Assembly (NCBI GenBank): GCA_027623205.1
Contig: JAQBYC010000005.1
Location: 310 to 64,309 of the forward strand
Source of the DNA: Pseudomonadota bacterium
GTDB lineage: Bacteria > Pseudomonadota > Alphaproteobacteria > GCA-2731375
Direction: 5' to 3'
DNA: 64,000 nucleotides
The translations under genes and the position numbers were made by a program. This document shows positions 7,320 to 32,216 of the stretch, one piece after another; within the stretch, counting starts at the first letter, position 1; the number at the start of each line of letters is the position of its first letter. The notes under the pieces are model-generated. The model worked only from the letters and a program-made list of their open reading frames with translations. It made no database searches and had not been told where the DNA came from.

Positions 7320-7361
7320 GGCGATCTCCTCTCGCTGGTTAGGGTCCGGGTCAATTACATA

Positions 7362-7379: not shown

Positions 7380-7594
7380 CCTAGGGCCTGTTTCCTCGAA
7401 ACATGCTCGGACTCATAAGAACGGCGCAATTGAACCAATTATTTAAGCCGCGATAGCGGCTCCGATAAACTGAAAATTGCGCTGGCGTGCCACGCTGCCT
7501 TCACCGATGACGGAAGTCAAGATCATGGCTTTCAGGATGGCGCAGGAAGCGGATCAGGGTCACGTCGACGCCAGGGTCTAGCATCGAATTCTGA

Positions 7595-11222: not shown

Positions 11223-11386
11223 GATCCAACACCTCCCGCCGGTAATCTGCCCTGTTGATTATAGATTATACCAAGTTGCGCCGACGGAAACCCATCTTTC
11301 CCCTTGTCGAATGGCCTTGGGCGGTGAAAACTGGCGCCGAAAAACAGTCACTGGCAATTCGTTTGATAAATACAAAGGGGAGAGGC

Positions 11387-12748: not shown

Positions 12749-13810
12749 GTGGGCGCATTCTCCGAACAGACGCCGATCAACGTCATTACCGGCTTTTTGG
12801 GCAGCGGCAAGACGACCCTGTTGAAGGGTCTGCTGGCGGCCCCCGATCTGTCGGATACGGCGGTCCTGATCAACGAGTTCGGGGCCGTGGGTCTGGATCA
12901 CGAGTTGGTGCAGACTGTCGCGGAAAGTACCCTGCTGCTGGACAACGGCTGCCTCTGTTGCGCCATTCGCGGTGACCTGCAAGGCGCCTTGCGTGGCCTG
13001 CTCTCGCAACGGCAAGGGGGCCAGGTGCCCAATTTCCGGCGTGTGGTGATCGAAACCTCGGGTCTGGCAGACCCCGCGCCCATCGCCTACACCTTGTTGG
13101 CGGAACCGGTGCTGCAGCATCATTTCCGCCTGGGGGGCATCATTACAACGGTGGATGCGGTCAACGGCGGGGGGCAATTGCAACGCTTCCCCGAATCGGT
13201 AAAACAGGCGGCCGTGGCCGACCGCCTGATTGTGACCAAGACCGACCTGGCCGAACCGGAGCAGCTTGCGGCCCTGTACACCAGTCTGCGCCGCCTGAAC
13301 AAATCCGCCCCGATCGTGGAGATAGGCGACGGCGACATCCAGCCCGCCACGTTGTTAACCGATGATATGTATGACGCAGGGGGCCGGGACCGGGAAATCA
13401 GCCAATGGCTGGCGGCATATACGGCCGAGGACGCCCTGAACCACGGGGGCGAGGCTGCCCTGATCCACGAGCACGCCGATCACGTTCATTCCTTTGCCCT
13501 GACCTACGCCAGCCCCCTGGACTGGACCGCCTTTGGCATCTGGATGACCATGCTGCTGCACCACCATGGCGACAACGTTTTGCGTATCAAGGGTTTATTG
13601 AACGTGGCCGGCGTGCCCACCCCGGTCCTGATCAACGGCGTGCAACATATCGTCCACCCGCCCGCCCACCTGCCGGCCTGGCCCGGCGAAGCGCGCCATT
13701 CCCGCATCATCTTCATTGTCAGGGATATGGCGCAGAGCCGGATAGAAGCCTCCCTCGCCGCCTTCAACAACCTGGCCAACCCCGACGCCGCGCCGGGCCA
13801 GGCGGCCTAA
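12749..13810 (+). CDS. CobW/COG0523 G3E GTPase metallochaperone
   Basis: ITGFLGSGKTT, INEFG, GCLCC, IETSGLADP, TKTD, LRIKG, C-terminal CobW_C region. Confidence 0.92.
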   Translation: MGAFSEQTPINVITGFLGSGKTTLLKGLLAAPDLSDTAVLINEFGAVGLDHELVQTVAESTLLLDNGCLCCAIRGDLQGALRGLLSQRQGGQVPNFRRVVIETSGLADPAPIAYTLLAEPVLQHHFRLGGIITTVDAVNGGGQLQRFPESVKQAAVADRLIVTKTDLAEPEQLAALYTSLRRLNKSAPIVEIGDGDIQPATLLTDDMYDAGGRDREISQWLAAYTAEDALNHGGEAALIHEHADHVHSFALTYASPLDWTAFGIWMTMLLHHHGDNVLRIKGLLNVAGVPTPVLINGVQHIVHPPAHLPAWPGEARHSRIIFIVRDMAQSRIEASLAAFNNLANPDAAPGQAA

Positions 13811-13850: not shown

Positions 13851-14378
13851 TTAATCACCGAGCGCTGAGTTTGAGCGTTGCGGGCGCCCGCGGCCAGTTG
13901 TCCAGCCATCACGGAAGGCGCGCACCAGATGGTGCAGCAGGTAGAACAAAATGGCGAGAATGACCATCAGTATGATCGCCAACAAATGTTCGCCAAATTC
14001 GGATCCGATAATGGTGCCGCGATTGACCAGATGCTCCCCCAGCATGGCCACGGCCTGCAGGGTACCGCCGGCACAAAAGATCACCGCGATCAGGATCGCC
14101 ACCTGCAGGCTGTCAAACACCAGAATTTCGACATTCAGAGCGCTGCCGTCACGGCCAAACTGGCTGCGGAAACTCTGCCAATGGGCGATGACATAACCGA
14201 CAATTCCCACCAGGGAGGCAAACCAGAACACCACGTTGGAGAAATGTATCTGGGGTATATGGGCCACCAGATAACTTTCAAACGGCTTATAAAAATACAG
14301 GAAAATCAGCAATATGATGATGGCGATCAAGCTGATCCAGAATTTCGCCCGCCGCCCCGTCGTTGTCTCTTCAGCCAT
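13851..14378 (-). CDS. Unknown multi-TM membrane protein (paralogue of 33878..34351)
   Basis: About 4 hydrophobic helices; shares LIFLYFYxPFE, VGIVG..HW and AG..LQAV with 33878..34351. Confidence 0.75.
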   Translation of the reverse strand: MAEETTTGRRAKFWISLIAIIILLIFLYFYKPFESYLVAHIPQIHFSNVVFWFASLVGIVGYVIAHWQSFRSQFGRDGSALNVEILVFDSLQVAILIAVIFCAGGTLQAVAMLGEHLVNRGTIIGSEFGEHLLAIILMVILAILFYLLHHLVRAFRDGWTTGRGRPQRSNSALGD

Positions 14379-14499: not shown

Positions 14500-15414
14500 C
14501 TAGCGCAATGCGGGCGCCACATCCTCGGCCAGGCGGCGCAGCTGGGCACGGTCAAGTGAAGGCACGCCCAACATCAGATGCGTGATGCCGGCATCAACCT
14601 GCTCCCGCAGGCGCACCCGCACCTCGGCGGCCGGACCAAAAACGGCATGTTGGTCGACATCGAAATCCGGGCCATAATAGCCATGCAGAAACTGGGCCAT
14701 CTCGGCGCGCGCCTTGGCCCGGTCATTGTCGACGGCGACATAAAGCAGGCGCCCAGCGGTCAAGTCATCAGGGTCCTTGCCAGCCGCCCTGGCGCCGGCT
14801 TGCGCAATTCGCCATCCATGCTCGAAATCTTTCGCCGATCCGAACGGCCCCATGATCCAACCGTCGCCAAGCTCGCCTGCACGGCGGATCGCCGCTTCGG
14901 CGATGCCGCCAACGAGAATGGGAAGCTTTGCGGCCGGCCGCACAATGGCGCCGTCCAATGGGAAATACGGCCCCGGGTGGGTGACCGGCTCGCCCGCCAA
15001 AAGCGCCCTTAGCGCTGTCATACCGTCGCGAAAAACAGCCACGCGCCGGTCCATGGGCACGCCCAGCGCCTGGTATTCCTCCGGACGGCCACCAATCGAT
15101 ACGCCCAAGGCCACCCGGCCACCGGAAAGATGATGCAGGGTCGAGACCTGACGGGCTAAAATGGGTGCCTGACGCAAATTCAAAAGCAGCACCGCGGTCC
15201 CCAGCCGCACCCGCTGGGTATTGGCCGCGGCCCAGGACAGGAGCATCAGCGAGTCCGCCAAATGCGCGGCATGAAAGATGCGGTCCTCGACCCAGATCGC
15301 GTCCAGCCCCATGGTCTCGATATCCCGGAAAAAGCCGGCATAGGCCTGCCCATCCGCCAGACCCGAGGCCGAGACGCTCGGAACATGTATACCGACCGAT
15401 ACGGATTTTTCCAT
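14500..15414 (-). CDS. LLM-class flavin-dependent oxidoreductase
   Basis: DAIWVEDRI, RVRLGTAVL, LSGGRVALGV, PILVGG..AIRRA..GDGW. Confidence 0.88.
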   Translation of the reverse strand: MEKSVSVGIHVPSVSASGLADGQAYAGFFRDIETMGLDAIWVEDRIFHAAHLADSLMLLSWAAANTQRVRLGTAVLLLNLRQAPILARQVSTLHHLSGGRVALGVSIGGRPEEYQALGVPMDRRVAVFRDGMTALRALLAGEPVTHPGPYFPLDGAIVRPAAKLPILVGGIAEAAIRRAGELGDGWIMGPFGSAKDFEHGWRIAQAGARAAGKDPDDLTAGRLLYVAVDNDRAKARAEMAQFLHGYYGPDFDVDQHAVFGPAAEVRVRLREQVDAGITHLMLGVPSLDRAQLRRLAEDVAPALR

Positions 15415-15639
15415 AAAACCGCCCTTCTAACCTGCGCCTTGACCTGCGCCGTGAAATGCGCCGCCAAATAACATCGGATCCGGCGCCAATTCACCCGAAA
15501 TATCACCGGAACGAGTTGACCCGCACCCATGGAACGTTAACATGCAGCGTCGACTTTTTGGGTCAATTTTGGGCCGACGCGGGGCAGTCGTTCCCGCACG
15601 GACCGTATATGAGTGGGGCGGGCAAAATGGGGCGGCGGA

Positions 15640-17724
15640 ATGAGTAGTCGGCTGGGCGTGGATGTCGGCGGCACTTTCACCGATTTGTTGCTGTTCAACG
15701 AGCAGAACAGCGAACTGCGCCTGTTGAAGACACCGTCCACGCCGCAGGACCAATCCATCGGCATCATGAAAGGCATCTCGCAATTGATTGCCGAGGCTGG
15801 GATCAGCCCATCCGAGATCAAGGGCCTGTTGCACGGCACCACTGTCTCCACCAACATCGTGCTGGAGGCAAAGGGTGCCAAGGTCGGCTTGCTGGTGACC
15901 AAGGATTTCGAACAGGTGCTGCATCTGGCCCGTTCGCAGACGCCGGGGCCCCTGGCCGGTTGGATGATCATGGAAAAGCCCGATCCCCTGGCGGATCTGG
16001 AACTGACCCGGGGCATCCCCGAACGGATGAGCGCGCGCGGCGAAGTGTTGACGCCGTTTGACGAGGCGGCGGCACGGCTGGCTGTGCGGGAATTGATCGA
16101 TGCCGGCGTCGAATCCATCACTGTATCTCTGCTCCATTCCTATGCCAATCCGGCGCACGAGCAGCGCCTTCGTACGATTATCGAGGAAACCGGCAGCGAC
16201 ATTCCCATCTCCCTGTCTTCGGAAATTTTGCCGGAATTCCGCGAATACGAACGTACCCTGGTGACCGTGATGAATGCCTACGTAGGGCCGTCCATGAGGC
16301 GCTATCTGGCTAATTTCGAAGAGAAATTGAAGAGCATCCAGTTTTCTCCGCACGTCAATATCGTCCGCTCCGACGGCGGCTTGATGTCGGTGCAACGGGC
16401 CTCGGAATCCCCGGTGCATACCATGTTGTCGGGGCCGGCCGGTGGGGTCTCGGGCGCGGCCTTTCTGGCTTCTCTGGCGGGATACGACAACGCCCTGGGT
16501 TTTGATATGGGCGGCACATCAACGGATGTGTCCTTGATCCAGAATGGCCTGCCGCTGATCTCGCGGCAGACATCCCTGGGCCATTACCCCATCAAGATAC
16601 CCTCGGTGGAGGTCCATTCGGTGGGCGCGGGCGGTGGCTCCATTGCCCATGTACCCATGACCGGCGCCCTGCGGGTGGGCCCGGAAAGCGCGGGCGCGGC
16701 GCCGGGCCCGGCCTGTTATGGCCTGGGCGGCGAACAGCCAACCGTGACCGATGCCAATCTATTGCTGGGGCGGTTGCCGCCACGATTGCTGGACGGCCAG
16801 ATGACCCTGGATGTAAAGGCCGCCGAGGACGCGGTGGGCAAGGTTGCCCGTGCCATCGGCCTTGATCTGTACCAGGCGGCCCAGGGCATTCTGGATATCG
16901 TCAACGAGAACATGTTCGGCGCCCTGCGTTTGGTATCCGTGCAAAAGGGCCTCGACCCACGTGATTTTGCCCTTGTGGCGTTTGGCGGCGCCGGCCCTCT
17001 GCACGGCAACGCCATGGCCATGCTGGGCCATTGCTATCCGGTCATTGTCCCGCCGATACCGGGCGTGCTATCCGCCCTTGGTTTCCTCTACTCCGACGTC
17101 AAGAACGAATTCGCACAAACCTATGTGCGCAATATCGCTGACGTGAATGGGGAACAATTGCGTCAAATTTACGATCGCCTGGGCCGCGAGGCGCGCGGCT
17201 GGCTGCAGGAAGAGGGGATTGACGAGCGACGCCAGGAACTGAGCTTCCAGGCCGATGTGCGTTATTTCCGTCAAGGCTATGAATTCGCCCTGCAGGTTAG
17301 CCCAGATGGCCTGAGCAACGGCGGCCTGGCCGACCTGGAAGCCCGATTTGGCGCGGCCCATGAGCGGCTGTACGGTTTTCGCCTGGAGCAACCCGTGGAA
17401 CTGGTCAACCTACGTGCGGTCGGCGCCGGCCAGGTTGAAAAGGTGCAATTGCCTCGTTTCGAGCTGGAAGGCCCTGATGCATCGGCCGCGGTGGTTGAAC
17501 AGCACCGGGTTTATTTTGACGGCGGCTTTTTGAACGCCAACATATATGATCGTAAATTGTTGCGGGCCGGCTATCGCCTGACCGGCCCGGCGGTCATAAC
17601 CCAGGCGGATTCGACCACGGTCATTCATCCGGGCCACGTGGGTGTTGTGGACCGGTATTTGAATATTCTGATTTCCCCCGAAGGCGGGCAGACAGCGGCG
17701 ATCGGGGGCACGGGAAGAACATGA
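15640..17724 (+). CDS. hyuA: Hydantoinase A / oxoprolinase (ATP-binding subunit)
   Basis: GVDVGGTFTD, HGTTVSTN, EFREYER, LSGPAGG, DMGGTSTD, GAGGGSIA, FGGAGPLH. Confidence 0.92.
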   Translation: MSSRLGVDVGGTFTDLLLFNEQNSELRLLKTPSTPQDQSIGIMKGISQLIAEAGISPSEIKGLLHGTTVSTNIVLEAKGAKVGLLVTKDFEQVLHLARSQTPGPLAGWMIMEKPDPLADLELTRGIPERMSARGEVLTPFDEAAARLAVRELIDAGVESITVSLLHSYANPAHEQRLRTIIEETGSDIPISLSSEILPEFREYERTLVTVMNAYVGPSMRRYLANFEEKLKSIQFSPHVNIVRSDGGLMSVQRASESPVHTMLSGPAGGVSGAAFLASLAGYDNALGFDMGGTSTDVSLIQNGLPLISRQTSLGHYPIKIPSVEVHSVGAGGGSIAHVPMTGALRVGPESAGAAPGPACYGLGGEQPTVTDANLLLGRLPPRLLDGQMTLDVKAAEDAVGKVARAIGLDLYQAAQGILDIVNENMFGALRLVSVQKGLDPRDFALVAFGGAGPLHGNAMAMLGHCYPVIVPPIPGVLSALGFLYSDVKNEFAQTYVRNIADVNGEQLRQIYDRLGREARGWLQEEGIDERRQELSFQADVRYFRQGYEFALQVSPDGLSNGGLADLEARFGAAHERLYGFRLEQPVELVNLRAVGAGQVEKVQLPRFELEGPDASAAVVEQHRVYFDGGFLNANIYDRKLLRAGYRLTGPAVITQADSTTVIHPGHVGVVDRYLNILISPEGGQTAAIGGTGRT

Positions 17725-20012
17725 ACGATCTGAACCCAGAGCGCGGCCGCATTTCCCTCGATGACCTGTTGAAAGCCAACAAGGAACAGTTCGACAAGGT
17801 CTTTGCCACCCAGATGGATCAGAGCGGCCTGCTCGCCGTCAATCACCGTCCCACCACCGCCGCCGACCTGCAATCCGCCAGCCTGGCCAATAGCGAAGCC
17901 CGAGGCGATGTCACGGCGCGGTTGAATGCCCGTTTCGGCAGCGGCTGGTCATCTGAAATCATCGAACACAGCAGCGAACGGGGCAGCGTCACCGTGCTGT
18001 GCAAGCTGGTGGTCGACGGGGTTTCGAAAATGCAATTTGGCAGCGCCCGAATCAACGGCGATCCGGGCAAAGCCTTGCAGCGGGCATCGGACAACGCCCT
18101 GGCGAAATGCGCCGCCATGCTGGCGGACGAGGCGCAGGCCGCGGGCGCCGCGGGCGCCCCTGCCGTCACGGAAGCGACGGCTGTTCAAGGGCGGCAACGC
18201 CCCGCCCTGGCGCAAGGCACCGCCGCGCCCCAGGCGGCGGCGGCCGGCAAGCTGGACATCGTTACCCTGGATTTGATTGAGAACGCCCTGCGCAACGCCC
18301 GCCACGAAATGGATGCGGTGCTGTTCCGGTCCGCCATGTCGCCGGTCATCCGCGAACAGCACGACGAATACCCCATGATCACCGACCCCAAGGGACGGAT
18401 GATTGTCGGCCAATTTGGCTCCTACGTGCCCGAGATGTTGAAGACACAGAATTTTGATCTGGAACCGGGCGACGTCATTCTGCAAAGCGACCCGTTCAAA
18501 TGCGGCGGCGCCATCAGCCATATCAATGACTGGATGGTTCTGGTCCCGGTGTTCTTCGACGGCGCGCTGGTGGGCTTTACTTCCATGTTCGGTCATATGA
18601 TGGATGTGGGCGGCCCGGTGCCCGGCTCCATGCCCACCGCCGCGACCTCGATTTTTGGCGAAGGTTTGCGCATTCCACCGATCAAGCTCTACGAAGCCGG
18701 CGTGCGGAACAAGGCGGCGCTCGACCTGATCATGAACAATACCCGCACGCCGGAAATGAACTACTCCGACCTGATGGCAATTCTCGCAGGTTGCCGGGCC
18801 GGCGAAAAGCGGGTGATCGAACTGTGCGAACGCTTTGGCCCGGAGATCTATGCGCAGGCCTGCGATGCGCTGCTGGAACGCACCGAACGGGCCATGCGGA
18901 AACTGATCGTGCGGAACCTGCCGACCGAGCCACAATCGTTCGAGGATTATGTGGACGATGACGGCTGCGGCAACGGCCCCTTCAAGATGAAACTGACGGT
19001 CTGGCGCGAAGGGGAACATGCCTATTTTGACTGGACTGGCACCGCCCCCCAGGCGCCGGGACCGATCAATTTCTATCTGCATGACGGCATGTTCAAAATG
19101 TTCATTGGGGTCTACATGATCATGGTGTTTGATCCGCAGATCCTGTTCAACGACGGCTTTTATGATCTGATCCACGTCACCCTGCCCAAGGGGTCGCTGG
19201 TGCATCCCAATTTCCCCGCGCCCCTGGGTTGCCGCACCCATGCCCTGTCCCGCCAGTTTGACGTGCTGGGCGGCGCCCTTAGCCATAACGCGCCGGACAT
19301 GGCGACCGCCGCCGGTTACGGCTCCAGCCCGCATTTCCTTTATTCGGGCACGGACAAGGACGGGCGAAGCTTTCAATTGATGGAAATTTTGTACGGGGGC
19401 ATTCCCGGCCGTCCCATCGGCGACGGCATGGACGGCCATTCCTGGTGGCCATTGTTCGAGAATATCCCTACCGAATACCTGGAGACCTATTATCCCATGG
19501 TGATCGACGCCTATGGCTCCATCAAGGATACCGGCGGGGCCGGTTTGCACCGGGGCGGTAATGGCATTGAAAAAATTTACCAGTTGCTGGTTGATGGCGA
19601 TGTCTCGATCCACGATGACCGCCATTTAAGCCAACCCTGGGGCATATTGGGCGGCAAACCCGGCGCTGTATCGGAAAAATGGCTGATCCGGAAAGACGGT
19701 GAAAAATCGCCGTTACCGTCGAAAATCGACAATGTACGGGTTCACCCGGGTGACCGGATCGTCTTTTGCACCGCCGGGGGCGGCGGTTGGGGCGACCCCC
19801 TGGAACGCGACCCGACGTGGGTGCGCAACGACGTGGCGCGCCGGCTGCTCAGCCTGGAAAAGGCCCGCGGCGACTATGGCGTGGTACTGGACGGGGCCGC
19901 ATTGACCGTCAGCCGCCGAGCCAGCCAGGAACTGCGCGATAACATGAGACGAAACCGCAAATCTTTGCCATTGTTTGATTTTGGCGAACGGCGAAGCAAC
20001 AGATCGAACTAG
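17721..20012 (+). CDS. hyuB: Hydantoinase B / oxoprolinase with N-terminal Rad52/Rad22-like domain
   Basis: HydB domain from ~18249 (SPVIREQHD, SHIND, GHMMDVGG, GGAGLHRGG, TAGGGGWGDP); extra ~175-aa N-terminus; overlaps hyuA stop (ATGA). Confidence 0.9.
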   Translation: MNDLNPERGRISLDDLLKANKEQFDKVFATQMDQSGLLAVNHRPTTAADLQSASLANSEARGDVTARLNARFGSGWSSEIIEHSSERGSVTVLCKLVVDGVSKMQFGSARINGDPGKALQRASDNALAKCAAMLADEAQAAGAAGAPAVTEATAVQGRQRPALAQGTAAPQAAAAGKLDIVTLDLIENALRNARHEMDAVLFRSAMSPVIREQHDEYPMITDPKGRMIVGQFGSYVPEMLKTQNFDLEPGDVILQSDPFKCGGAISHINDWMVLVPVFFDGALVGFTSMFGHMMDVGGPVPGSMPTAATSIFGEGLRIPPIKLYEAGVRNKAALDLIMNNTRTPEMNYSDLMAILAGCRAGEKRVIELCERFGPEIYAQACDALLERTERAMRKLIVRNLPTEPQSFEDYVDDDGCGNGPFKMKLTVWREGEHAYFDWTGTAPQAPGPINFYLHDGMFKMFIGVYMIMVFDPQILFNDGFYDLIHVTLPKGSLVHPNFPAPLGCRTHALSRQFDVLGGALSHNAPDMATAAGYGSSPHFLYSGTDKDGRSFQLMEILYGGIPGRPIGDGMDGHSWWPLFENIPTEYLETYYPMVIDAYGSIKDTGGAGLHRGGNGIEKIYQLLVDGDVSIHDDRHLSQPWGILGGKPGAVSEKWLIRKDGEKSPLPSKIDNVRVHPGDRIVFCTAGGGGWGDPLERDPTWVRNDVARRLLSLEKARGDYGVVLDGAALTVSRRASQELRDNMRRNRKSLPLFDFGERRSNRSN

Positions 20013-20064: not shown

Positions 20065-22881
20065 ATGTATGAAGTTGGAATTGCGTTGTTCATTACGGCC
20101 ATCGTCGTCCTCGCGATCCTGTATATTATTTCCATCTGGATTTATAAGCGGGCGCCGTCGAATATGTGCTTTATCCGCACGGGCTTTGGCGGCACCAGGG
20201 TCTGTTTGGGCCAGGGCGCCTTGGTCCTGCCGGTTTTTCATGAAGTATCGTGGGTCTCGCTTGAAACCCTGAAGCTGATCATTTCCCGGTCACGGGATCA
20301 GGCGATCCTGACCTCGGACAATATTCGCATCGACGCGGTGGTCGAACTGTACACCCACGTTGGCCATACGGAAGACGCGGTGTTGACCGCTTCACGCAGC
20401 CTGGGCGAAAAGACCTTTGATTCCGACAAGGTACGCAATCTGTTGGAAGCCAAAGTCGTCGGCGCCCTGCGCAGCTTTGCCGCGACCAAGACCTTGAAGG
20501 AACTGCATCAAAACCGTGACGCCTTTTCCACCGACATCCGCAACGGTGTCACCGAAAGCTTCACCGCCAACGGGCTGGTCCTGGAGGAAGTCTCGATCGT
20601 CACCCTGGAACAGTCAGGCAAGGAATTCTTCCGCACCGACAACGTGTTTGATGCCGAGGGTTTGAAGGTGATTACCGAGATTACCTCGGAGGCGCGGCGC
20701 AAGGTGCATGACACGGAAAAACGCACCACGGTGTCGATCCGCCAGAAGGATCTGGATACCCAGTTGGAACTGTTGGAGATCGAGCGGCACGAAGCCGTGG
20801 CCCGGGCCAATCAGGACAAGGAAATCGCCAACGAACAGGCCAAACAACTGGGTGAAAAGCAGATCTATGTGCTGGATCAGCGCATGGCGGTCGAGCAAAA
20901 GGAAATCGACAACGAAAAATCCCTGGAACGCATCCGTACCGATCGGGATCTGGCGGTAACGGAGGAAGCCAAGCGCCGTGAAATCGCCGAAATTCAAAAA
21001 GAACTCGCCCTGGAGACGGAGCGCCGAGACCGGGAAATCAATTTGATCGCCAAGGCGCGGGAAGAGGAATTGGCCAACATCAGCCGCAACCTGACCTTGG
21101 AATTGGCCGAACGGGATCGCCAGATCGAGCTGGTTGGCAAGGCCAAGGATACCGAGCTGGCGGAAATCGACCGTGTCCTATCGCGGGAGCGGGCCGAAAA
21201 GCAGCGGGAAATCGAACTATCCCAAAAGGAGAGAGAGCGTCAACAGTCAGAGATCGCGCGCATCACCGCCGTCATGGCGGACGAGGAAGCGGCCCGTGAT
21301 GCCCGCCACAACGCAGCCGAAGAGGCCGCCCTGTCGGTGCGCAAACGGGCGCTGCAAACCCGATTGGAAATGCTGGAACTGGACAAACAGGACAGCTTTG
21401 CCGCCGCCCGGCAGGAACAGGAAGTGGCCAACGAGAAGGCCCGTGTCCTGAGCGAGCAGCAACGTTTCATTCTGGATCGCCGCTGGGAGGTGGAGCAGGA
21501 AGAAATCACCAAGGCCGAGGCATTGGAAAAAGCCCGCCTACAAAAGGACACGGCCGTTATCGAGGAGAGCAAAGCGAAGCAAACCGCGGAGATCATGCGT
21601 TCCTTGTCACGCGAATCCGCGGAACGGGACCGCGAGATTGCTTTGGTCGGCAAGACGCAGGAATTGGAGCGGGCGGAAATCCGCCGCACCCTGGCCCGGG
21701 AACAGGAAGAACGGGACCGCGAGATTGCCATGGTCGCAAAAGCCAAGGAACTGGAACAGGTGGAGGTCCAGAAAAATCTGGCGATAGAGTTGGAGATGCG
21801 CCAGCGAGACATCGCCCTGATCGAGAAGGACAAGGAACGCGAGGCTGCGGACATCCGCCGTTTCCTGGCCCGTGAGATGGAGGAACGCAACCGCGAAATC
21901 GCCCTGGTGGAGAAGACCAAGGAACTGGAGTCCGCGGAGGTGCAGCGCCTGACCACGACGGCGGAAAAGGAAAGCGCCCAACACCGGGTCGAATCCGTCC
22001 GCTTGCTGGCGGATGCCGAACGCGCCAAGGAAATCGAGCAGATCAATGCGGAAATGCTGGCGGAAATCCGCCGTATCGACGAGGAAAGCAAAGCGGCCAT
22101 CACCCGCATGCATATGATTACCCAATCGGAAGCGCGGAAACTGTCGGCGGAACAGGAATCGGATGCCACCATGATCCGCGCCCGCGCGTCGGCCGAGGCC
22201 CAGAAGATTTCCGCCGAAGGCATCGAGCGGGAGGCGGGTGCGAAAGGCCGGGCGGAAATGGAGATCGAGGCCCTGCGCGTCATCAATACCCAGCGTATGT
22301 TGGAGGCGGAGGCCAGCGGCATGGAAGCCAAGGCGGATGCCCTGAAAAAATACAACGACGCCGCCACCTTCCTGGAACTGGCGAAGCTGTCTATCGAGGC
22401 CGACCGGGATGTCCATATCGATCAGGCCCGCGCCATGGGCAATGCCCTGGAAGGGGCGCAGATCCGCATGTATGGCGGCGGCGACGGCACGGTCGACACC
22501 ATTCGCGGTCTGTTTACACAGGGCTTTGGCGTGGGCGAGGTACTGGAAGGCTTTGCCCAATCCATGCCCGACGGCCTGCGCCAGAAGTTTACCGCCAACG
22601 GCCTGCGTGGCCTGTTCGGCCGCCCCTACGGACAGGGCGGCCTGCGGCAGGCGGCGGCGCATCTTTCGGCCTTGGTCGATACCACCTTGAGCACGAAGAA
22701 GGCCCGCGAAGCCAATTTCCCCGAGGCGCTGGAGAAACTCATCAAGGCGGCCGGCGACGACGAGACCATGGCCCAGACCCTGGCCATGCTGAAGGAGCTG
22801 AATAGCCAGGGTGCATTCGACAAGGTGTCTTTCGACAACGTCTGGAATATCATGCAGGCCGTGGCGAAGACGGCAGACTAG
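20065..22881 (+). CDS. Very long flotillin/SPFH (band 7) protein, 938 aa
   Basis: N-terminal TM, then YKRA..FIRTGFGG..GALVLPVFHE, LTSDNIRIDA, LEQ..FF..DNVFDAEGL (YqiK/flotillin type); ~550-aa E/K/R/A coiled coil; flotillin C-terminal region. Confidence 0.88.
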   Translation: MYEVGIALFITAIVVLAILYIISIWIYKRAPSNMCFIRTGFGGTRVCLGQGALVLPVFHEVSWVSLETLKLIISRSRDQAILTSDNIRIDAVVELYTHVGHTEDAVLTASRSLGEKTFDSDKVRNLLEAKVVGALRSFAATKTLKELHQNRDAFSTDIRNGVTESFTANGLVLEEVSIVTLEQSGKEFFRTDNVFDAEGLKVITEITSEARRKVHDTEKRTTVSIRQKDLDTQLELLEIERHEAVARANQDKEIANEQAKQLGEKQIYVLDQRMAVEQKEIDNEKSLERIRTDRDLAVTEEAKRREIAEIQKELALETERRDREINLIAKAREEELANISRNLTLELAERDRQIELVGKAKDTELAEIDRVLSRERAEKQREIELSQKERERQQSEIARITAVMADEEAARDARHNAAEEAALSVRKRALQTRLEMLELDKQDSFAAARQEQEVANEKARVLSEQQRFILDRRWEVEQEEITKAEALEKARLQKDTAVIEESKAKQTAEIMRSLSRESAERDREIALVGKTQELERAEIRRTLAREQEERDREIAMVAKAKELEQVEVQKNLAIELEMRQRDIALIEKDKEREAADIRRFLAREMEERNREIALVEKTKELESAEVQRLTTTAEKESAQHRVESVRLLADAERAKEIEQINAEMLAEIRRIDEESKAAITRMHMITQSEARKLSAEQESDATMIRARASAEAQKISAEGIEREAGAKGRAEMEIEALRVINTQRMLEAEASGMEAKADALKKYNDAATFLELAKLSIEADRDVHIDQARAMGNALEGAQIRMYGGGDGTVDTIRGLFTQGFGVGEVLEGFAQSMPDGLRQKFTANGLRGLFGRPYGQGGLRQAAAHLSALVDTTLSTKKAREANFPEALEKLIKAAGDDETMAQTLAMLKELNSQGAFDKVSFDNVWNIMQAVAKTAD
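20974..21950 (+). repeat. Intragenic 87-bp (29-aa) tandem repeats in two blocks 600 bp apart
   Basis: Units start at 20974, 21061, 21148, 21235 and 21574, 21661, 21748, 21835, 21922; consensus E.E.AEI.R.LARE.EERDREIALV.K.K. Confidence 0.85.
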
Positions 22882-22904: not shown

Positions 22905-24014
22905 ATGGCCGAACTTGACGTCGTCCTAGAGCATGTGGACAAGACCTTCCCGGGCAATACCCGGGCTGTCATCGACTTCAACGCCGAGATCGAGCATGGC
23001 GAATTCGTCTCCATGCTAGGCCCGTCGGGCTGCGGCAAGACGACGCTGTTGCGGATGATCGGCGGCTTGGAGGAGGTTACCTCCGGCCGTATCTTCATCT
23101 CCGGCAAGGATGTCACGGACCTGCCGCCGTCCCAGCGCGACACCTCGATGATGTTTCAAAGTTTCGCCTTGTTCCCCCACCGCACGGTTTTCCAGAATGT
23201 CGGGTTCAGCCTGAAGATGCAGGGGATCGACAAAAGCATCGCCGACCGGCGGGTGTGGGCAATGCTGGAAACCGTCGGCCTGGACCAATTATCGTCGCGC
23301 CGGCCTTCCGATCTATCGGGCGGCCAGCAACAGCGCGTGGCCCTGGCCCGGGCCTTGATCAGCGAGCCTACGGTGTTGTTGCTGGACGAGCCCCTGGGCG
23401 CACTGGATTACAACCTGCGTCAGACCATGATGGTCGAACTGAAGAAGATCCAGCAGGACACCGGCATCACCTTCATCATGGTCACTCATTCCCAACAGGA
23501 AGCCATGTCAATGGCCGACAAGGTTATCGTGATGAGTGATGCAATGGTGCAGCAAATTGGCTCTTCCCGGGAAATTCACGAGAACCCGCGCAACCGCTTC
23601 GTCGCAGAGTTCATCGGCAACAACAATATTTTCAAGGGCGTCATCCGTTCTCGCAGCGGCTCCATGGTATTTATCGAAGCCGGCGAACAGCTTTATTATG
23701 TCCGCGTGCCCGAGCATATCCGCCAGGTCCCTATTGGCCAGGAAGCTCATTTTTCCGTACGCGCCGATCTGATGCATACGGGTGACAACCCTCAGATGGC
23801 CAACAAGATCATCGGCCGCTATTTGGCGACGGAATTCCTGGGCACGCTGGAAACGGACGTGTTCGAAGTGACGCCGGGCCATTTCATTCATGTGGAACAG
23901 CATCGTCACCTGTCGGATACCACCTATAAGGTCGGCGAGCGTGAAACCCTGTGTTTCGCGGCCAATTCCGGCATGCTATTGGAAGAAACCCGGCGGCCCG
24001 ATGATAGGGTCTAA
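22905..24014 (+). CDS. ABC transporter ATPase, PotA-like
   Basis: GPSGCGKTT, LSGGQQQRVALARAL, LLLDEP, TOBE-like C-terminus. Confidence 0.92.
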   Translation: MAELDVVLEHVDKTFPGNTRAVIDFNAEIEHGEFVSMLGPSGCGKTTLLRMIGGLEEVTSGRIFISGKDVTDLPPSQRDTSMMFQSFALFPHRTVFQNVGFSLKMQGIDKSIADRRVWAMLETVGLDQLSSRRPSDLSGGQQQRVALARALISEPTVLLLDEPLGALDYNLRQTMMVELKKIQQDTGITFIMVTHSQQEAMSMADKVIVMSDAMVQQIGSSREIHENPRNRFVAEFIGNNNIFKGVIRSRSGSMVFIEAGEQLYYVRVPEHIRQVPIGQEAHFSVRADLMHTGDNPQMANKIIGRYLATEFLGTLETDVFEVTPGHFIHVEQHRHLSDTTYKVGERETLCFAANSGMLLEETRRPDDRV

Positions 24015-25312: not shown

Positions 25313-25325
25313 CAGGGGCAGGACG

Positions 25326-26159: not shown

Positions 26160-27340
26160 CCGTGGCGACAATCGAAGCGGTTGATTTCTTTTACCTGCGC
26201 ATGCCGGAGGTCGAAGCGATTGCCGACAACAGCCAGGATTCCCTGCTGGTTCGGGTTGCCAGCGGCAACGACGTGGGGTGGGGTGAATGCGACGCCGCGC
26301 CCCTGGTCTCCATCGCCTCCTTCATCGCGCCCATGTCCCATGGGATCTGCCGGCCGGTTCAGGATTCCGTCCTGGGCCAACTCCTGGACAGCCCCGCGGA
26401 CATTGCCCGCATCAACAAACTTGTGCGGGCCAACGGCCTCGATCTGTTGCAGACCTCGCATACCCTGGCAGGCATCGATATGGCCATGTGGGATCTGTTG
26501 GGCCGGCGCCGGGGCGAACCGGTCTGGCGCCTGCTTGGCCATGAGCAAAGCCATGGCAAGACCCCGTATGCATCGCAGCTATTCGGTGATGATCCGGCGG
26601 AAACCCTGGCCAAGGGCAAGGCGCAACGGGACCGGGGCTTTCGCGCCGTAAAGTTCGGCTGGGGACCTTACGGACAGGGCGATGCACGAAGCGATAGGGA
26701 ACATATTGCCGCCGCCCGCGAAGGCCTGGGTGAAGAGGGGATACTACTGGTCGATGCCGGCACGGTCTGGGTTGATGACCTGGAGGCCGCCAGCGCCCGC
26801 CTCGAGGCCCTCAAGACCCACCGGGCAACCTGGCTGGAAGAACCATTCATCTCCCCTGCCCTGGCCGCCTATCGCCAGTTGGCTGAATTGGCCGCGCCCT
26901 TGCGTTTGGCGGGCGGCGAAGGCGCCCATAATTTCCATATGGCGCAACAGATGATCGATTATGCCGGTATCGGTTATGTGCAGATCGACGCCGGGCGCAT
27001 GGGTATCACCGATGCCAAGTCGGTTGCCGACTACGCCGCCCAGCGTGATGTCCGCTTCGTCAATCATACTTTTAATTCGCACCTCGCGCTCAGCGCCTCG
27101 TTGCAACCCTTCGCCGGACACGAAAAGGATGACATCTGCGAGTACCCGGTGGAAGCCAGGCCCCTGGCCCGCGAAATCACCCAAAGCATGATTGAACGCG
27201 ACGCCAATGGCCTGATCCGCGCGCCTGACGCCCCCGGTCTGGGTCTGGAAATTGATACCGCCGCCATGGCCCGCTATCTGGTCCAGGTCGAGATCAAGAT
27301 CGATGGCGAAATGCTTTATACCACGCCCGCGTTACCGTGA
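26156..27340 (+). CDS. Mandelate racemase/muconate lactonizing enzyme family (enolase superfamily)
   Basis: GIDMAMWDLLG, AVKFGW, LLVDAG, WLEEP, AGGE, PGLG. Confidence 0.88.
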   Translation: MTVATIEAVDFFYLRMPEVEAIADNSQDSLLVRVASGNDVGWGECDAAPLVSIASFIAPMSHGICRPVQDSVLGQLLDSPADIARINKLVRANGLDLLQTSHTLAGIDMAMWDLLGRRRGEPVWRLLGHEQSHGKTPYASQLFGDDPAETLAKGKAQRDRGFRAVKFGWGPYGQGDARSDREHIAAAREGLGEEGILLVDAGTVWVDDLEAASARLEALKTHRATWLEEPFISPALAAYRQLAELAAPLRLAGGEGAHNFHMAQQMIDYAGIGYVQIDAGRMGITDAKSVADYAAQRDVRFVNHTFNSHLALSASLQPFAGHEKDDICEYPVEARPLAREITQSMIERDANGLIRAPDAPGLGLEIDTAAMARYLVQVEIKIDGEMLYTTPALP

Positions 27341-28159
27341 CCGCCGATAGAGAATCGTATAGATTCCCAGGAAAATCGAGATCATCAGCAACGAAAATAG
27401 GGTCGAGGCCGTCCCCAGCGCGAACAGGGTCGGGCGGATACGTTGGGTCATGGAGGCGTTGATATCCAGGGGCAGCGTATTCTGGGCCCCGGCCAACAGG
27501 GTGGTCCGGGCGAATTCGTCGTAGGACAGGGTGAAACCGAACAGACCGGCGGCAACCACCCCAGGCGTGATCAGGGGGAACGTCACTTCCTTGAACACCG
27601 TCCATTCATCGGCGCCCATATCGCGTGCCGCCTCCTCCAGCCTGGAATCAAAGCGGTTGAAGACCGCCATCATCACCAGATAGCCAAACGGCAGGGCCCA
27701 GATGACATGGACCGCCAAACCGGATGTATACCAGGCCGGCGCCAGGCCCAATTGCCGCAGCAGAATGGCCATCCCCAGACTGAGTAACACGCCCGGCACC
27801 ATCAGGCCGGTCAGAATAGTGTAAAACAGGACATTGGAAAAAAGAAACGACTTGCGAAAGGCCATCGCCAGCATGGTCGAAAACAGCGCCGTGAGCACCA
27901 TCACCATCAAGGCCAGAATGATGGACCGGCCCATGGCCCCCTGCATGTCGCCCACCGTTGAAGGTTCCAGCAGTTTGTTCCACCAATACAGGCTGAAGCC
28001 CCGCATGGGGAACGAGGTGCCGCCGCGCTGGCCCTGAAATGACAGCACGAACATGGCGAACATGGGGCCGTAGATGAACAGCAGGAAGATTACGTAATAG
28101 ATGGAGAAGCCGGTTTTCACCCGCAACTTGCGCCAACGCTCCGGTGTCCTGCGCGCCAT
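27332..28159 (-). CDS. ABC transporter permease, PotC-like
   Basis: EAA loop LEEAARDMGA, FTLSYDEF; 6 TM. Confidence 0.9.
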   Translation of the reverse strand: MARRTPERWRKLRVKTGFSIYYVIFLLFIYGPMFAMFVLSFQGQRGGTSFPMRGFSLYWWNKLLEPSTVGDMQGAMGRSIILALMVMVLTALFSTMLAMAFRKSFLFSNVLFYTILTGLMVPGVLLSLGMAILLRQLGLAPAWYTSGLAVHVIWALPFGYLVMMAVFNRFDSRLEEAARDMGADEWTVFKEVTFPLITPGVVAAGLFGFTLSYDEFARTTLLAGAQNTLPLDINASMTQRIRPTLFALGTASTLFSLLMISIFLGIYTILYRRSR

Positions 28160-28164
28160 TGGCG

Positions 28165-29145
28165 TTACAACTCTTTCCGGATATCGACGACGCGCAAGAT
28201 GACGACGATGCCAATAACCATGGCCAGCATCAACATCAACGCATTGACGGCGGCAAACGGATAGTTCGCGATACCGTAATAATTGAGGATCACGGTGCCG
28301 GCGGTGGAGGTCTTGCCGCCATAGACCACGACCGCGGTGGCGAATTCACCCATAATCATGACGAAAATGAAAATCATCCCAATGGCGACGCCGGGCAGCG
28401 ACATGGGACCGATTATTTCGCGGAAAATCTGAAACGGGGTGGCGCCCATGTCGGTGGCGGCTTCCAAAATGTCTTTGTCGATCTTGGCCAGCGAAAAGAA
28501 CATCGGCCCGATCCCCAGCACCACATAGATCTGCACCAATGCCATGGTGTAGCCGAACTCGGAATAAAACAGAAAACTGACCGGTTCGTCGACAATGCCG
28601 AGGCCAAGCAGGGCCTGATTGATCAGACCACGGCGGCCCAGCATGGGCAGCCAGGCCACGGCCCGGATCAAATACGAGGTCCAGAAGGGCACCATGCACA
28701 ACAGGAACAACGCCAATTGCCATTTGAAGGCCTGCACCTGCATGGCCAGAAAATAGGCGATGGGATAGCCCACGATCAGACACAGAAGCATGGTCACGAG
28801 GGTGAAATAAACCGTGGAACCAAGCGTCCGGATAAATACGCTGGGCAGTAGGAAGCGATCCGCGTCAGGATCGAAAAAGCCCTTGGTGTAAAAATACTCC
28901 CCGTAGAATTCCAGGGAAAAGGCCGGGCTCAAACCTTGGGGCGAATTCTCCCAGAAACTGAAAATGACAATGGAGACCAGCGGGACAACCAGAAACAGGA
29001 TAAGCCAGATGGCCGCGGGCGTTATCAGCCAGACCGTGGCGAAGCCTTCCTCGGTATGGCTGATCTTGGCTTGGATCGCCAGGTCATCCGGCGCGGGTTG
29101 GCCGCCGATCAAGCCTGTATGATATAATTCGCTAACTTTTGACAT
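28165..29145 (-). CDS. ABC transporter permease, PotB-like
   Basis: GYPIAYFLA, PFWTSYLIR, LEAATDMGA. Confidence 0.9.
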   Translation of the reverse strand: MSKVSELYHTGLIGGQPAPDDLAIQAKISHTEEGFATVWLITPAAIWLILFLVVPLVSIVIFSFWENSPQGLSPAFSLEFYGEYFYTKGFFDPDADRFLLPSVFIRTLGSTVYFTLVTMLLCLIVGYPIAYFLAMQVQAFKWQLALFLLCMVPFWTSYLIRAVAWLPMLGRRGLINQALLGLGIVDEPVSFLFYSEFGYTMALVQIYVVLGIGPMFFSLAKIDKDILEAATDMGATPFQIFREIIGPMSLPGVAIGMIFIFVMIMGEFATAVVVYGGKTSTAGTVILNYYGIANYPFAAVNALMLMLAMVIGIVVILRVVDIRKEL

Positions 29146-29266: not shown

Positions 29267-30553
29267 TCAGGCGGTCAGGAATTCCGTCCACCGTTTCACC
29301 AGATAATCGTTTTCGCTCATGATGGAGTTCCACACGGCGATATTCTTGAACCGTTGTTCATAGGATCCGCCATCACGCACCGCGCCCTTCGCGACAAGCG
29401 GCGTGCCGAAGGGGTCGGGCAGTTCCTTGGCAGCCGGTTTCCCTTCGTACCAGAAGTCCCATTCATCGGCCGGCAGGCTCTTTTTGGTGTTTGCCGTGGT
29501 CGACATGTAATAGCCCTGGCGGGCGACAAAGGCGCCGGCCCAGCCATCAAGCCACCAATTGACGTATTCATAAGCCTGATCCAGTTGCTTGCCGCTGGCC
29601 TTGGCCGATATCGCCAGGGCGCCGTGCCAGCCGCGCATGCCTTCCTTGGGCGAGGCATAGATACAGGGCACGCCTTCGGCGTTCACGGCCGTCACCGCCG
29701 GCGACCACATGCTTTGCAGGACAACTTCGCCACTGACCATCAGGTTGACCGATTGGCCGAAGGTTTCCCAGAAGGCCCGGAAGTGACCTTCCTTCTTCTT
29801 CTTCGTCAGGAAGTCGACCAGGACGTCGATTTCCTTGCGGGTCATGTCGCCTTTATCGCCAAACTTGATCAGACCCAGAGCCTCGACGCCCATGGCCGCA
29901 TCCATGGCGCCAATCTGAGGCACGTTCAATAGCGCCACCCGGCCCTTGAAATCGGAACTGAACAATTCCGCCCAGCTGTCAATGGAACGCTTGGTCTCCT
30001 TCGGGTTGTAGCCCAGGGAATCGGCGTTATGCCAACCCGGCACGGCCGAAATATAGCGCGACGGCCCCTTGGTCGGTGCACCGTTTTCGTCCACCCACAA
30101 TTTGTGAAACGGCGCATCGCCCTGGCCGATCTGCGAACCAGGGGTCAGTTTGCCGGTCTTGGTCAGATTCGAAACCTTGTCCCAGTCCCTGATACGCGTG
30201 GTATCGATCGGTTGGAACACCTTGGACGGCACCATGACATCGAACATGTCAAAGTAGCATTCGGAAACTTCATACTGGTCGTTCTGGTTCAGGGTTTTGC
30301 CAAACAGAGCACCGTAGCCAAGGGCCTGGCCGCGGACAGGAAAACCCAAATCCTTGGCCGCCTTGCCCTGGATCTCGTTGATGATACTGACGCCCAGGCC
30401 AATGCTCCGAATCGGATCGGCGGCCTGAACAATATTCGGGAAGCCGGTGATACCGCCCGCCGCCGCAATGCCCGCCGCGGTTCCCATGAATTTCCGGCGG
30501 CTGATCTTCAACAGCGCGCCAGTCGATTTTTTATTACCGTTTTTTGCAGTCAT
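29267..30553 (-). CDS. ABC transporter substrate-binding protein (PotD/PotF-like), Tat-exported
   Basis: SRRKFM twin-arginine leader; NADSLGY, SMWSPAV, KEGMRGW; GGGAGG RBS before ATG 30553. Confidence 0.85.
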   Translation of the reverse strand: MTAKNGNKKSTGALLKISRRKFMGTAAGIAAAGGITGFPNIVQAADPIRSIGLGVSIINEIQGKAAKDLGFPVRGQALGYGALFGKTLNQNDQYEVSECYFDMFDVMVPSKVFQPIDTTRIRDWDKVSNLTKTGKLTPGSQIGQGDAPFHKLWVDENGAPTKGPSRYISAVPGWHNADSLGYNPKETKRSIDSWAELFSSDFKGRVALLNVPQIGAMDAAMGVEALGLIKFGDKGDMTRKEIDVLVDFLTKKKKEGHFRAFWETFGQSVNLMVSGEVVLQSMWSPAVTAVNAEGVPCIYASPKEGMRGWHGALAISAKASGKQLDQAYEYVNWWLDGWAGAFVARQGYYMSTTANTKKSLPADEWDFWYEGKPAAKELPDPFGTPLVAKGAVRDGGSYEQRFKNIAVWNSIMSENDYLVKRWTEFLTA

Positions 30554-30746
30554 TTCCTGCCTCCCATTTGCCTGTTTGTCATGCGGCAATCATCGCACGA
30601 TCCTTGGCGGTAAATCCACGCCTTATCCATCCCTTGCTCCCGGCATCAATCCGCGGATCAAGCGCCTAGCGCAAAGCTGGTTTAATGATACATTAGGTTC
30701 GGAAACCGCCAAACTGAAAGTAACGGAATTATTCGGGGAGAAGGCT

Positions 30747-32216
30747 GTGACGGTCCTCATCAAAAACGGCCGCATCGTGACGGCAGCCGACGACTATAAC
30801 GCCGACATATTCATCGGCGGGGAAACGGTGTCCCTGATCGGCCGTAATCTGGAAATCGATGCGGACCATGTCATCGATGCCACCGGTAAACTGGTGATCC
30901 CGGGCGGCGTTGATCCGCACACTCATCTGGAAATGCCGTTCGGCGGCACCACCACCTCTGATACCTTCGAAACCGGCACCCGGGCCGCGGCCTTTGGCGG
31001 CACCACGACCATCGTTGATTTCGCCATTCAGACCAAGGGCACCTCGACCCTGGAAGCCCTGGATAGCTGGCATGGCAAGGCGGCGGGACGCACCGCCATC
31101 GACTATGGCTTTCACATGGTTATTACCGACATGCCCGAGGAACGGTTGCCGGAAATGCGCCGCCTCTCCGACGAAGGCGTCACCTCGTACAAGTTGTTCA
31201 TGGCCTATCCCGGCGTCCTGCTGTCCGATGACGGCACCATATTCCGCGCCATGCGCAAGGCGGGCGAGGACGGCACCCTGGTCTGCATGCACGCCGAAAA
31301 TGGCATCGTCATTGACGAATTGGTCAAAATTGCGCTTTCAGAGGGCCATATAGAACCGAAATATCACGCCCTGACCCGCCCAACCCGCCTGGAAGCCGAA
31401 GGCGCGCACCGCGCCCTGGCCATTGCCGAGGTTGCCCGGGCGCCGGTCTATCTGGTGCATCTGAGTTGTTTTGACGCCCTGGAACAATTGCGCATGGCCC
31501 AGGCGCGCGGCGTCATGGCCCATGCCGAAACCTGCCCGCAATATTTACTGCTGGACGTGGATTGCTATGACGAGCCGGGCTTCGATGGCGCCAAATACGT
31601 GCTGACGCCGCCCCTGCGGGAAAAATGGAACCAGGCCGAGTTATGGGGCGGGCTGCGCACTTCCGCGCTGGATGTGATCTCCACCGATCATTGCCCCTTC
31701 TGCATGCGTGACCAGAAGGCGCTTGGCCGCGATGATTTCAGCCAGATCCCCAACGGCGGCCCCGGCGTGGAAAACCGCATGAGTCTGATCTATCACCGGG
31801 GCGTCAATCACGGCAATATCTCGCTCAACCGCTTCGTCGAACTGACCTCCACCTCGCCGGCCAAAATCTTTGGCCTGTTTCCCAAGAAGGGCACCATCGC
31901 CGTGGGCAGCGATGCCGATATCGTCGTCTTCGATCCAGACCGCGAAGAGACGATTTCCCTGCACAATCCCCACACCCACCACATGAACATCGACTACAAC
32001 GCCTATGAAGGCACCAAGGTGCGCGGCTTTACCGAGACCGTGCTGTCGCGGGGCCGGGTGATCATCGACAAGGGCAATTATCTGGGCCGGCCCGGCGACG
32101 GCGCCTTCGTCAAACGCGGCCCCTACGGCGGCCTGCACGCCTCCAGCCGCGCCGCGGCCACCTCCATCGCGCTCAGCACCTCGGGCCGCCTTGGCGCGCC
32201 GGGGGCGCATCGGTAG
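30747..32216 (+). CDS. hydA: Dihydropyrimidinase / D-hydantoinase
   Basis: PGGVDPHTHLEMPF, SYKLFMAY (carbamylated Lys), MHAENG, VHLS, ETCPQYL, STDHCPF; GTG start after GGGGAG. Confidence 0.93.
   Translation: MTVLIKNGRIVTAADDYNADIFIGGETVSLIGRNLEIDADHVIDATGKLVIPGGVDPHTHLEMPFGGTTTSDTFETGTRAAAFGGTTTIVDFAIQTKGTSTLEALDSWHGKAAGRTAIDYGFHMVITDMPEERLPEMRRLSDEGVTSYKLFMAYPGVLLSDDGTIFRAMRKAGEDGTLVCMHAENGIVIDELVKIALSEGHIEPKYHALTRPTRLEAEGAHRALAIAEVARAPVYLVHLSCFDALEQLRMAQARGVMAHAETCPQYLLLDVDCYDEPGFDGAKYVLTPPLREKWNQAELWGGLRTSALDVISTDHCPFCMRDQKALGRDDFSQIPNGGPGVENRMSLIYHRGVNHGNISLNRFVELTSTSPAKIFGLFPKKGTIAVGSDADIVVFDPDREETISLHNPHTHHMNIDYNAYEGTKVRGFTETVLSRGRVIIDKGNYLGRPGDGAFVKRGPYGGLHASSRAAATSIALSTSGRLGAPGAHR

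Follow-up and report, generated by a model that had tools for sequence, protein, structure and literature searches.

Why should the B subunit of a hydantoinase-type enzyme carry, ahead of its catalytic part, a stretch of protein that resembles the DNA-annealing proteins of the Rad52 superfamily? The question is raised by hyuB (17721..20012, + strand; 763 residues), which lies in a 64,000-nucleotide stretch of DNA, here called the window, from an alphaproteobacterial assembly deposited as Pseudomonadota bacterium (GCA_027623205.1, contig JAQBYC010000005.1, positions 310 to 64,309 of the forward strand). An earlier note on this DNA had described a DdrA/Sak-like Rad52/Rad22 domain fused to the enzyme and had proposed that an annealase fold was repurposed there for oligomerisation or targeting. 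Comparisons of sequences and of predicted structures identify residues 60-135 of HyuB (17898..18125, + strand) as homologous to the sheet-plus-helix core of the Rad52 annealase superfamily, and a helix rich in invariant residues, N-terminal to this core, is a second module of the extension. We favour, with a rough probability of 0.55, the explanation that the extension is an exapted assembly and anchoring module, made of a truncated Rad52 core and a docking helix, on the enzyme HyuAB.

A conserved coding extension on HyuB

The extension, an Ala-rich linker and a normal HydB domain had been read as parts of a single frame coupled to hyuA, and both points hold. One open reading frame (ORF) of 763 codons, with the 176 N-terminal residues as quoted in the earlier note, contains the complete Hydantoinase_B/oxoprolinase domain at residues 179-693 (18255..19799, + strand; PF02538, 495.5 bits against a cut-off of 26.8, profile positions 1-519 of 519), and its ATG at 17721 is overlapped by the TGA stop of hyuA in a four-base ATGA. 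The adjacent hyuA (15613..17724, + strand) encodes a full-length partner of 703 residues, a hydantoinase/oxoprolinase A subunit with PF05378, PF01968 and PF19278. The extension has a G+C content at third codon positions (GC3) of 0.78, compared with 0.74 for the HydB portion and 0.72 for hyuA. A translation start near 18249 is unavailable because the interval 18117-18273 holds no in-frame ATG, GTG or TTG. The N-terminal extension is coding sequence.

Searching with residues 1-176 retrieved 166 database proteins at E<=1e-3. Among the 120 extension matches listed, all carry PF02538 and most are 740-777 residues long, and those that bear source names come from alphaproteobacterial metagenome-assembled genomes. 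In a sample of 401 genomes of the same class the extension was matched in 18, spread across 14 genera; besides the window genome these are 17 genomes, 16 of them with the full extension. In an alignment of 35 sequences, which over the extension share 56-88% identity with the window protein, 43 columns among the first 130 residues are invariant, 28 of them inside residues 60-135.

Two trivial origins of the fusion were considered, both of them named in the earlier note as grounds for rejecting it, and neither survives. An assembly chimera is ruled out because the fusion recurs across many genomes (166 proteins; 18 of the 401 genomes), and a wrong or later start codon is ruled out by conservation at the protein level together with the lack of an in-frame alternative start. 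The fusion is thus real.

The nearest NCBIfam models of the two subunits are those of caprolactamase, the alpha model for HyuA (515.6 bits) and the beta equivalog NF050157 for HyuB (253.4 bits), each under a cut-off of 1000 bits. Caprolactamase is described as a two-subunit enzyme in the accessible part of its report (PMC8453981). Compared with caprolactamase CapAB, hydantoinase and 5-oxoprolinase, both window proteins are full-length family members whose scores fall far under the equivalog cut-offs. HyuAB would therefore appear, from sequence comparison, to be an uncharacterised ATP-dependent enzyme of the hydantoinase/lactamase type, with a B subunit that bears a two-part, flexibly tethered accessory module. 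The related acetone and acetophenone carboxylases vary in subunit composition and have recruited extra small subunits, as far as the available text of two reports goes (PMC13677872, PMC5214803). Their small subunits offer an analogy only, the module here being either fused or encoded by a separate gene, and no similarity was seen (no Pfam match).

Rad52 kinship of the core and the features it lacks

An AlphaFold2 (AF2) prediction for residues 1-145 that drew on 34 homologues has a mean predicted local distance difference test (pLDDT) score of 78.7. The N-terminal helix, residues 13-34 (17757..17822, + strand; SLDDLLKANKEQFDKVF...), is predicted with block pLDDT values of 80-85, and D14, D15, L16, L17, N20, K21, Q23, F24, D25, F28 and Q31 are invariant in all 35 sequences. 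A poorly ordered linker follows at residues 35-59 (17823..17897, + strand; block pLDDT 49-67, falling under 50 at residues 55-60), which is variable in the family alignment A3. The core is the best-predicted part (block pLDDT 82-96 over residues 60-135, and 93-96 over residues 71-130); its topology is alpha-beta-beta-beta-alpha, with a helix at 64-72, strands at 76-86, 89-98 and 101-110, and a long helix at 115-143, and the model thus shows the Rad52 feature of a three-stranded beta-sheet crossed by a long alpha-helix. A flexible Ala/Pro/Gln-rich linker, not conserved in the consensus, joins the core to the HydB domain (residues 136-178, 18126..18254, + strand). The motif-bearing stretch that had been placed at 17898-18123 does correspond to residues 60-134 (ARGDVTARLN...KCAAML), with its end one base further in, at 18122.

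Direct family look-ups failed to place this core. HMMER against Pfam, which had been suggested as a check for Rad52_Rad22, gave no PF04098 match at E<=10 with either the whole protein or residues 1-176, the latter returning AAA_33 noise only; with residues 1-176, NCBIfam gave no match, PHROGs a single family of unknown function at E 0.13, and the PDB sequences nothing beyond T-cell-receptor noise at E>=0.33. Because of these failures, the Rad52 link required a search of a whole sequence library and a profile-profile step. Searching 1.84 billion representatives with residues 1-176, phmmer found 148 matches at E<=1e-3, and of the 43 more distant ones that were scanned, 26 are Rad52_Rad22 proteins scoring above the PF04098 gathering score. 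These align to approximately residues 60-135 (E values of 1e-6 to 1e-3; 31-55% identity over about 75 residues), and the window protein and their consensus A6 have in common the motifs RLN..F..WS.E(I/V).EH, V.VL..L, K.QFG and A..ALxKCA. In hhalign the family alignment A3 matches these 26 proteins with 99.6% probability (E 5.4e-25, 80 columns), where the 26 had been recruited by way of the query itself and their Pfam membership is independent of it. Among PDB sequences, their profile in turn finds RAD52 of human and yeast, the best match at E 2.1e-6.

Structural comparison points the same way. In VIA-align the window model ranks RAD52 (Z 8.9 and 8.7), Mgm101 (8.6) and yeast Rad52 (8.4) first, with residues 61-139 superposing on RAD52 67-165 at a root-mean-square deviation of 2.6 A over 78 residues (Z 8.9). 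Foldseek, another check proposed beforehand, likewise puts RAD52 at the top of its PDB matches (E 4e-4), and in BFVD a phage Rad52/59/22 protein leads the viral matches with E 1.9e-5 and 32% identity. The model of a stand-alone paralogue of the module, described below, is nearer still (pLDDT 75.9; RAD52 Z 10.5 and 10.3, yeast Rad52 9.6, Mgm101 9.3, next row 7.5). As a lead, the nearest ESM Atlas clusters (0.91-0.93) hold phage and Deinococcota hypothetical proteins, with 30% PF04098 in one cluster and 63% SSAP_Sak in another. The Rad52 resemblance that the earlier note had recognised in the extension is thereby borne out by phmmer, hhalign and both structural searches; of its narrower label, DdrA/Sak-like, the superfamily assignment stands, and no specific affiliation with DdrA or Sak emerged.

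The core is nevertheless a truncated Rad52 core and not a complete annealase domain. The Rad52 superfamily has been defined by two motifs, a three-stranded sheet with a helix and a beta-hairpin, both of them critical for DNA binding, according to the portion of the source that was available (PMC11783212). The N-terminal hairpin of about 30 residues (A6 consensus PF.P..IK.R.G..G..L.YVE) has no counterpart in the window protein by hhalign, where the match begins after the hairpin, at template column 48 (residue 30 of the first template row); its place is taken by helix 13-34 and the low-confidence linker. Also absent, as the earlier note had said of its terminal GIG..LY, is the G(V/I)G..LY segment after the long helix: the GVGL of A6 is aligned to ADEA (residues 135-138), after which the Ala-rich linker begins. 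In two alignments R55 and Y65 of human RAD52 fall in the missing hairpin, without a window counterpart, and K152, R153 and R156 correspond to A128, K129 and A132; we take all five to be inner DNA-site residues of the human protein. Of the basic residues, some of which the earlier note had found missing, part persists: K103 shows no variation, R110 recurs in 34 of the 35 sequences and R121 in 29. R or K occupies position 128 in 20 of the 35, and A or E predominates at position 132. By net charge and pI of the core, the family cannot be told apart from genuine bacterial Rad52 cores (median charge 0 versus -2.5). Judged by the residues, nucleic-acid binding has likely been lost.

The bacterial and phage Rad52_Rad22 proteins of PF04098, which include DdrA-type proteins and phage annealases, thus have their motifs and beta-beta-beta-alpha core in common with HyuB, whereas the HyuB core is without their N-terminal hairpin and GVGL.LY, goes undetected by the PF04098 model, has an enzyme attached or another helix in front of it, and sits in a catabolic cluster instead of a phage or repair context. 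The N-terminal domain of human RAD52, yeast Rad52 and Mgm101, all solved as rings or lock-washers, are its best structural matches, and head-to-tail association is predicted here as well; identity in these structural alignments is 16-20%, and the HyuB core has neither their hairpin nor their C-terminal helices.

Predicted self-association, the SPFH neighbour and competing explanations

Four copies of residues 8-143 were modelled with an alignment, in three runs and three controls. The interaction prediction score from aligned errors (ipSAE) was 0.65, 0.68 and 0.69, against 0.00 for the best control; partner pLDDT did not fall below 64, and 60% or more of the contacts recurred between runs. In the predicted interface, the contacts of lowest error join strand 101-108 of one copy to strand 73-80 of the next, with additional helix contacts, and the confident part includes no residue before 65. 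Such a head-to-tail interface can, in the model, propagate. We infer from these models that the core self-associates head-to-tail.

A second line of evidence concerns the gene that follows hyuB, which encodes a flotillin-like SPFH/Band-7 protein of 938 residues (20065..22881, + strand; PF01145 at residues 33-180). It lies directly 3' of hyuB in the window, in 16 of 16 other fusion loci and in genome G188, and the order holds where the HydB core is just 45% identical (L027, L028 and L032). The C-terminal 238 residues of the SPFH protein, used as a query, match 18 of the 401 genomes, a set identical to that of the extension matches, G188 included. Helix-bearing HyuB and the SPFH gene are strictly co-inherited in this sample. 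In G188, HyuB1 (L039:217-2214, + strand; contig C69) keeps the helix and a Pro/Ala linker and has lost the core, and the SPFH gene is still next to it; because this coreless protein retains the neighbour, the SPFH gene appears to be tied to the helix and not to the core.

The module also occurs in other settings. Stand-alone proteins of about 140-190 residues have the same helix, a Pro/Ala-rich linker and a core with an extra hairpin, and end at ...ALAKCAxxL; in the model of the stand-alone paralogue the hairpin lies elsewhere than in Rad52, between the sheet and the final helix. In seven sampled genomes their gene is found about 5-12 kb from the fusion gene. Loci L002 and L004 have it next to genes for a polysaccharide deacetylase and CobW; its immediate neighbours in L002 are an isochorismatase-family gene on one side and a redoxin gene on the other. 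A narrower search with an alignment of eight stand-alone sequences led to three loci, and a profile search added one genome with the stand-alone gene only (G352, an assembly of 810 contigs with 7% contamination). In G188 the stand-alone helix-plus-core gene (L033:6519-6947, - strand; 142 residues) overlaps by one base the stop of a gene (6947-7468) of the type of mem175, a predicted 175-residue membrane protein that the window encodes divergently from hyuA (13851..14378, - strand); a redoxin-like ORF follows the pair (6519-7468, - strand). This overlap suggests that mem175 and the module work together.

A second HydB paralogue, HyuB2, about 31% identical to window HyuB, bears the core without the helix. 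The core is N-terminal in G006 (P0300; L017:6434-8674, - strand) and C-terminal in G188 (L034:6226-8418, + strand; residues 637-720 of 730), so that in these orthologues, whose HydB parts are 54% and cores 44% identical, the domain order is swapped. C-terminal core fusions are rare, with three clusters. Four genomes encode mini-proteins of about 68 residues that are made up of the helix, the linker and a strand of the pattern G..G(I/V).F(S/T)(L/V). That of the window's own genome (contig C221:15147-15362, - strand; a frame of 72 codons, 68 residues from Met) has the helix motif (hmmsearch E 7.7e-10) without the Rad52-like core and lies between isochorismatase-like and redoxin-like ORFs, the site of the full stand-alone gene in other genomes; similar proteins of about 68 residues are encoded in G381 and G064, and a longer one of about 100 residues in G081 (loci L036, L037 and L038). 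The mini-protein may be a genuine short form rather than a remnant. The module behaves as an autonomous binding or assembly unit, because it works at either end of the enzyme on a long linker, or free. A further protein, P0212 (287 residues), joins a Rad52-like core at about 60-137 to a C-terminal Cds6_C NTF2-like domain (PF24125, E 1.8e-18), which adds another partner for the core outside recombination.

On the explanation that we favour, the core would have kept the one ancestral property still open to it, head-to-tail self-association, and would form an assembly hub on which HyuAB is bundled, together with a second HyuAB and the stand-alone paralogue in some genomes. The N-terminal helix would serve as a specific docking peptide for the downstream SPFH protein and/or mem175, a specific protein contact being preferred to generic membrane binding because its invariant residues are largely polar, and the enzyme, once docked, would sit at the membrane next to the ABC importer of the cluster. 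The role in oligomerisation or targeting that the earlier note had reasoned its way to would draw its backing from the same two sources, in-silico self-association and co-inheritance with a flotillin-like gene.

Several observations weigh against this explanation. All of its functional steps are deduced from sequence and models. Of proteins solved as same-chain pairs 20 of 30 reach the ipSAE pass mark, as does 1 of 23 that were solved as single chains; this calibration applies here roughly, and it was made with two copies where the model has four. The pass may moreover come from the memory the predictor has of solved Rad52 rings, and so reflect likeness rather than binding. The predicted interface shows no enrichment for invariant residues: it takes in 16 of the 28 invariants and 46 of the 81 residues. 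That neighbouring genes are inherited together does not show that their products bind, and related genomes do not count as independent cases. Neither the helix nor an adjoining SPFH gene accompanies the core in the HyuB2 fusions, and the partly retained basic residues would leave room for nucleic-acid binding. On the side of homology, the Pfam look-up missed PF04098, the family profile A3 gave no match among the PDB sequences, and folds of the double-stranded-RNA-binding domain (dsRBD), Rv1738 and HPF trail closely in VIA-align (Z 7-7.8), which makes the fold match of the window model not decisive by itself.

Four other explanations compete with it. The core might mainly dock another partner (the SPFH protein, mem175 or HyuA), which would make the extension a targeting device that forms no ring or filament; the strict co-inheritance with SPFH and mem175, the translational coupling of the G188 stand-alone gene to mem175, and the tether-like attachment of the domain, through a long linker, to one or the other end of HydB would all fit. 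We think this unlikely, given that the self-association model passes where its controls stay at 0.00, that coreless G188 HyuB1 keeps both helix and SPFH neighbour, and that HyuB2 bears the core away from any SPFH gene. That the domain still binds single-stranded DNA or RNA, in a moonlighting or regulatory role or for localisation to the nucleoid, is appreciably less likely again. Its homology to annealases, the conservation of K103, R110 and R121 with R or K at position 128 in 20 of 35 sequences, and a fold also like dsRBDs (Z 7-7.7) speak for such binding, yet the beta-hairpin, one of the two motifs critical for DNA binding in the part of PMC11783212 at hand, is absent. The equivalents of K152, R153 and R156, namely A128, K129 and A132, are variable within the family, and the conserved cluster contains no recombination, repair, phage or nucleic-acid gene by Pfam, NCBIfam and synteny.

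The extension could also be the leftover of an old prophage annealase gene insertion, at most a spacer, as the loss of the core in G188 HyuB1 and the shrinkage of the stand-alone gene to a helix-only mini form in four genomes, the window's own among them, might suggest. We regard this as very improbable in view of the 28 positions in residues 60-135 that stay invariant across 35 sequences 56-88% identical to the window extension, of a core that two lines of HydB paralogues retain, in either orientation, and of a GC3 at coding level. The least probable proposal is that there is no Rad52 kinship and that a fold of the dsRBD or HPF type arose by convergence: the dsRBD, Rv1738 and HPF chains reach Z 6-7.8, near the 8.9 of RAD52, in a range (Z<8) common for unrelated pairs. 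Against it stand links that do not depend on the fold, the phmmer matches to PF04098 and the hhalign match at E 5.4e-25 with shared motifs; in addition, the stand-alone paralogue splits Rad52-family chains (Z 9.3-10.5) from the rest (<=7.5), no dsRBD Pfam family matches at E<=10, and dsRBD chains, at Z 6-7.7, rank below those of the Rad52 family.

Returning to a truncated Rad52 core with a docking helix on HyuAB, its occurrence on a catabolic enzyme at the N-terminus, at the C-terminus or free suggests that the self-assembly property of the Rad52 fold has been reused outside DNA metabolism. What seems new is a family of truncated Rad52-type domains in a metabolic context linked to a membrane scaffold. 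Rad52-type folds are known as DNA annealases, and the lone exception that we met, RDM1, still binds nucleic acid. The accessible text on RDM1 describes a Rad52-type motif with an unrelated domain and a function distinct from that of RAD52 (PMC11783212); likened by this description only, RDM1 pairs the motif with an RRM, whereas the partner here is a metabolic enzyme. The family is unnamed and has no model in the Pfam-A and NCBIfam copies used, and naming it would improve the annotation of at least 166 'hydantoinase B family' proteins and of small 'hypothetical' paralogues. Helix-bearing HyuB and the giant flotillin-like protein would make a concrete client-scaffold pair for bacterial SPFH proteins. 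To our knowledge, the clients of bacterial SPFH proteins are mostly unknown. The earlier note knew of no described fusion of this kind, and our search of the full-text literature, with most subscription journals and supplements outside its coverage, likewise found no link of Rad52 to hydantoinase or oxoprolinase, nor of hydantoinase to flotillin. Speculatively, and with doubt outweighing confidence, helix and core may together be the assembly code of an unrecognised bacterial membrane metabolon, in which a Rad52-type ring or filament gathers HyuAB, joined in some genomes by a second HyuAB and by free module proteins, and the helix plugs into the SPFH scaffold and mem175 beside a dedicated ABC importer; if true, no earlier case of an annealase fold turned metabolic scaffold would precede it, and bacterial SPFH proteins of such a type would have their first defined enzyme client.

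The conserved gene cluster

Synteny was assessed by tblastn of 16 window proteins against 20 fetched loci. The window and all 16 of the other fusion loci have the conserved cluster, some members being missing at contig ends and in a few loci. In order, it comprises a polysaccharide-deacetylase/PuuE-like gene (11255-12412, + strand), a gene for a 107-residue protein (12422-12745, + strand), a CobW-type GTPase gene (12749-13810, + strand), mem175 on the opposite strand, hyuA, hyuB with the extension and the SPFH gene, followed by an ABC transporter ATPase gene directly after the latter (22905..24014, + strand; PF00005), two PotB/PotC-like ABC permease genes (27332..29145, - strand), a dihydropyrimidinase/D-hydantoinase gene (30447..32216, + strand) and a mem175 paralogue. 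The deacetylase, GTPase and permease assignments come from Pfam and NCBIfam together with synteny; mem175 belongs to no Pfam or NCBIfam family.

The SPFH protein has a hydrophobic N-terminus and a long middle part rich in Glu, Arg and Ala that by eye resembles degenerate coiled-coil repeats; Tandem Repeats Finder detects no DNA-level repeat in its gene. The SPFH/Band-7 domain is common to it and the bacterial flotillins (FloT/YqiK), from which it differs in length, its 938 residues being about twice the 477 positions of the FloT model, in its weak match to that model (34.1 bits against a cut-off of 700), and in being tied to the HyuAB operon.

The dihydropyrimidinase matches TIGR02033 with 599.4 bits (cut-off 393) over residues 103-557. 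Homologous loci align from residue 97-98, and about 100 extra N-terminal residues are covered by neither TIGR02033 nor the homologues; the true start is probably near residue 97. Relative to the conserved cluster of other genomes, the window has additional genes: a luciferase-like (LLM) oxidoreductase gene (14500-15414, - strand) lies between mem175 and hyuA, and a DAO-type FAD oxidoreductase, an epimerase-family and an MR/MLE enolase-family gene (24032-27340, + strand) lie between those of the ABC ATPase and the permeases.

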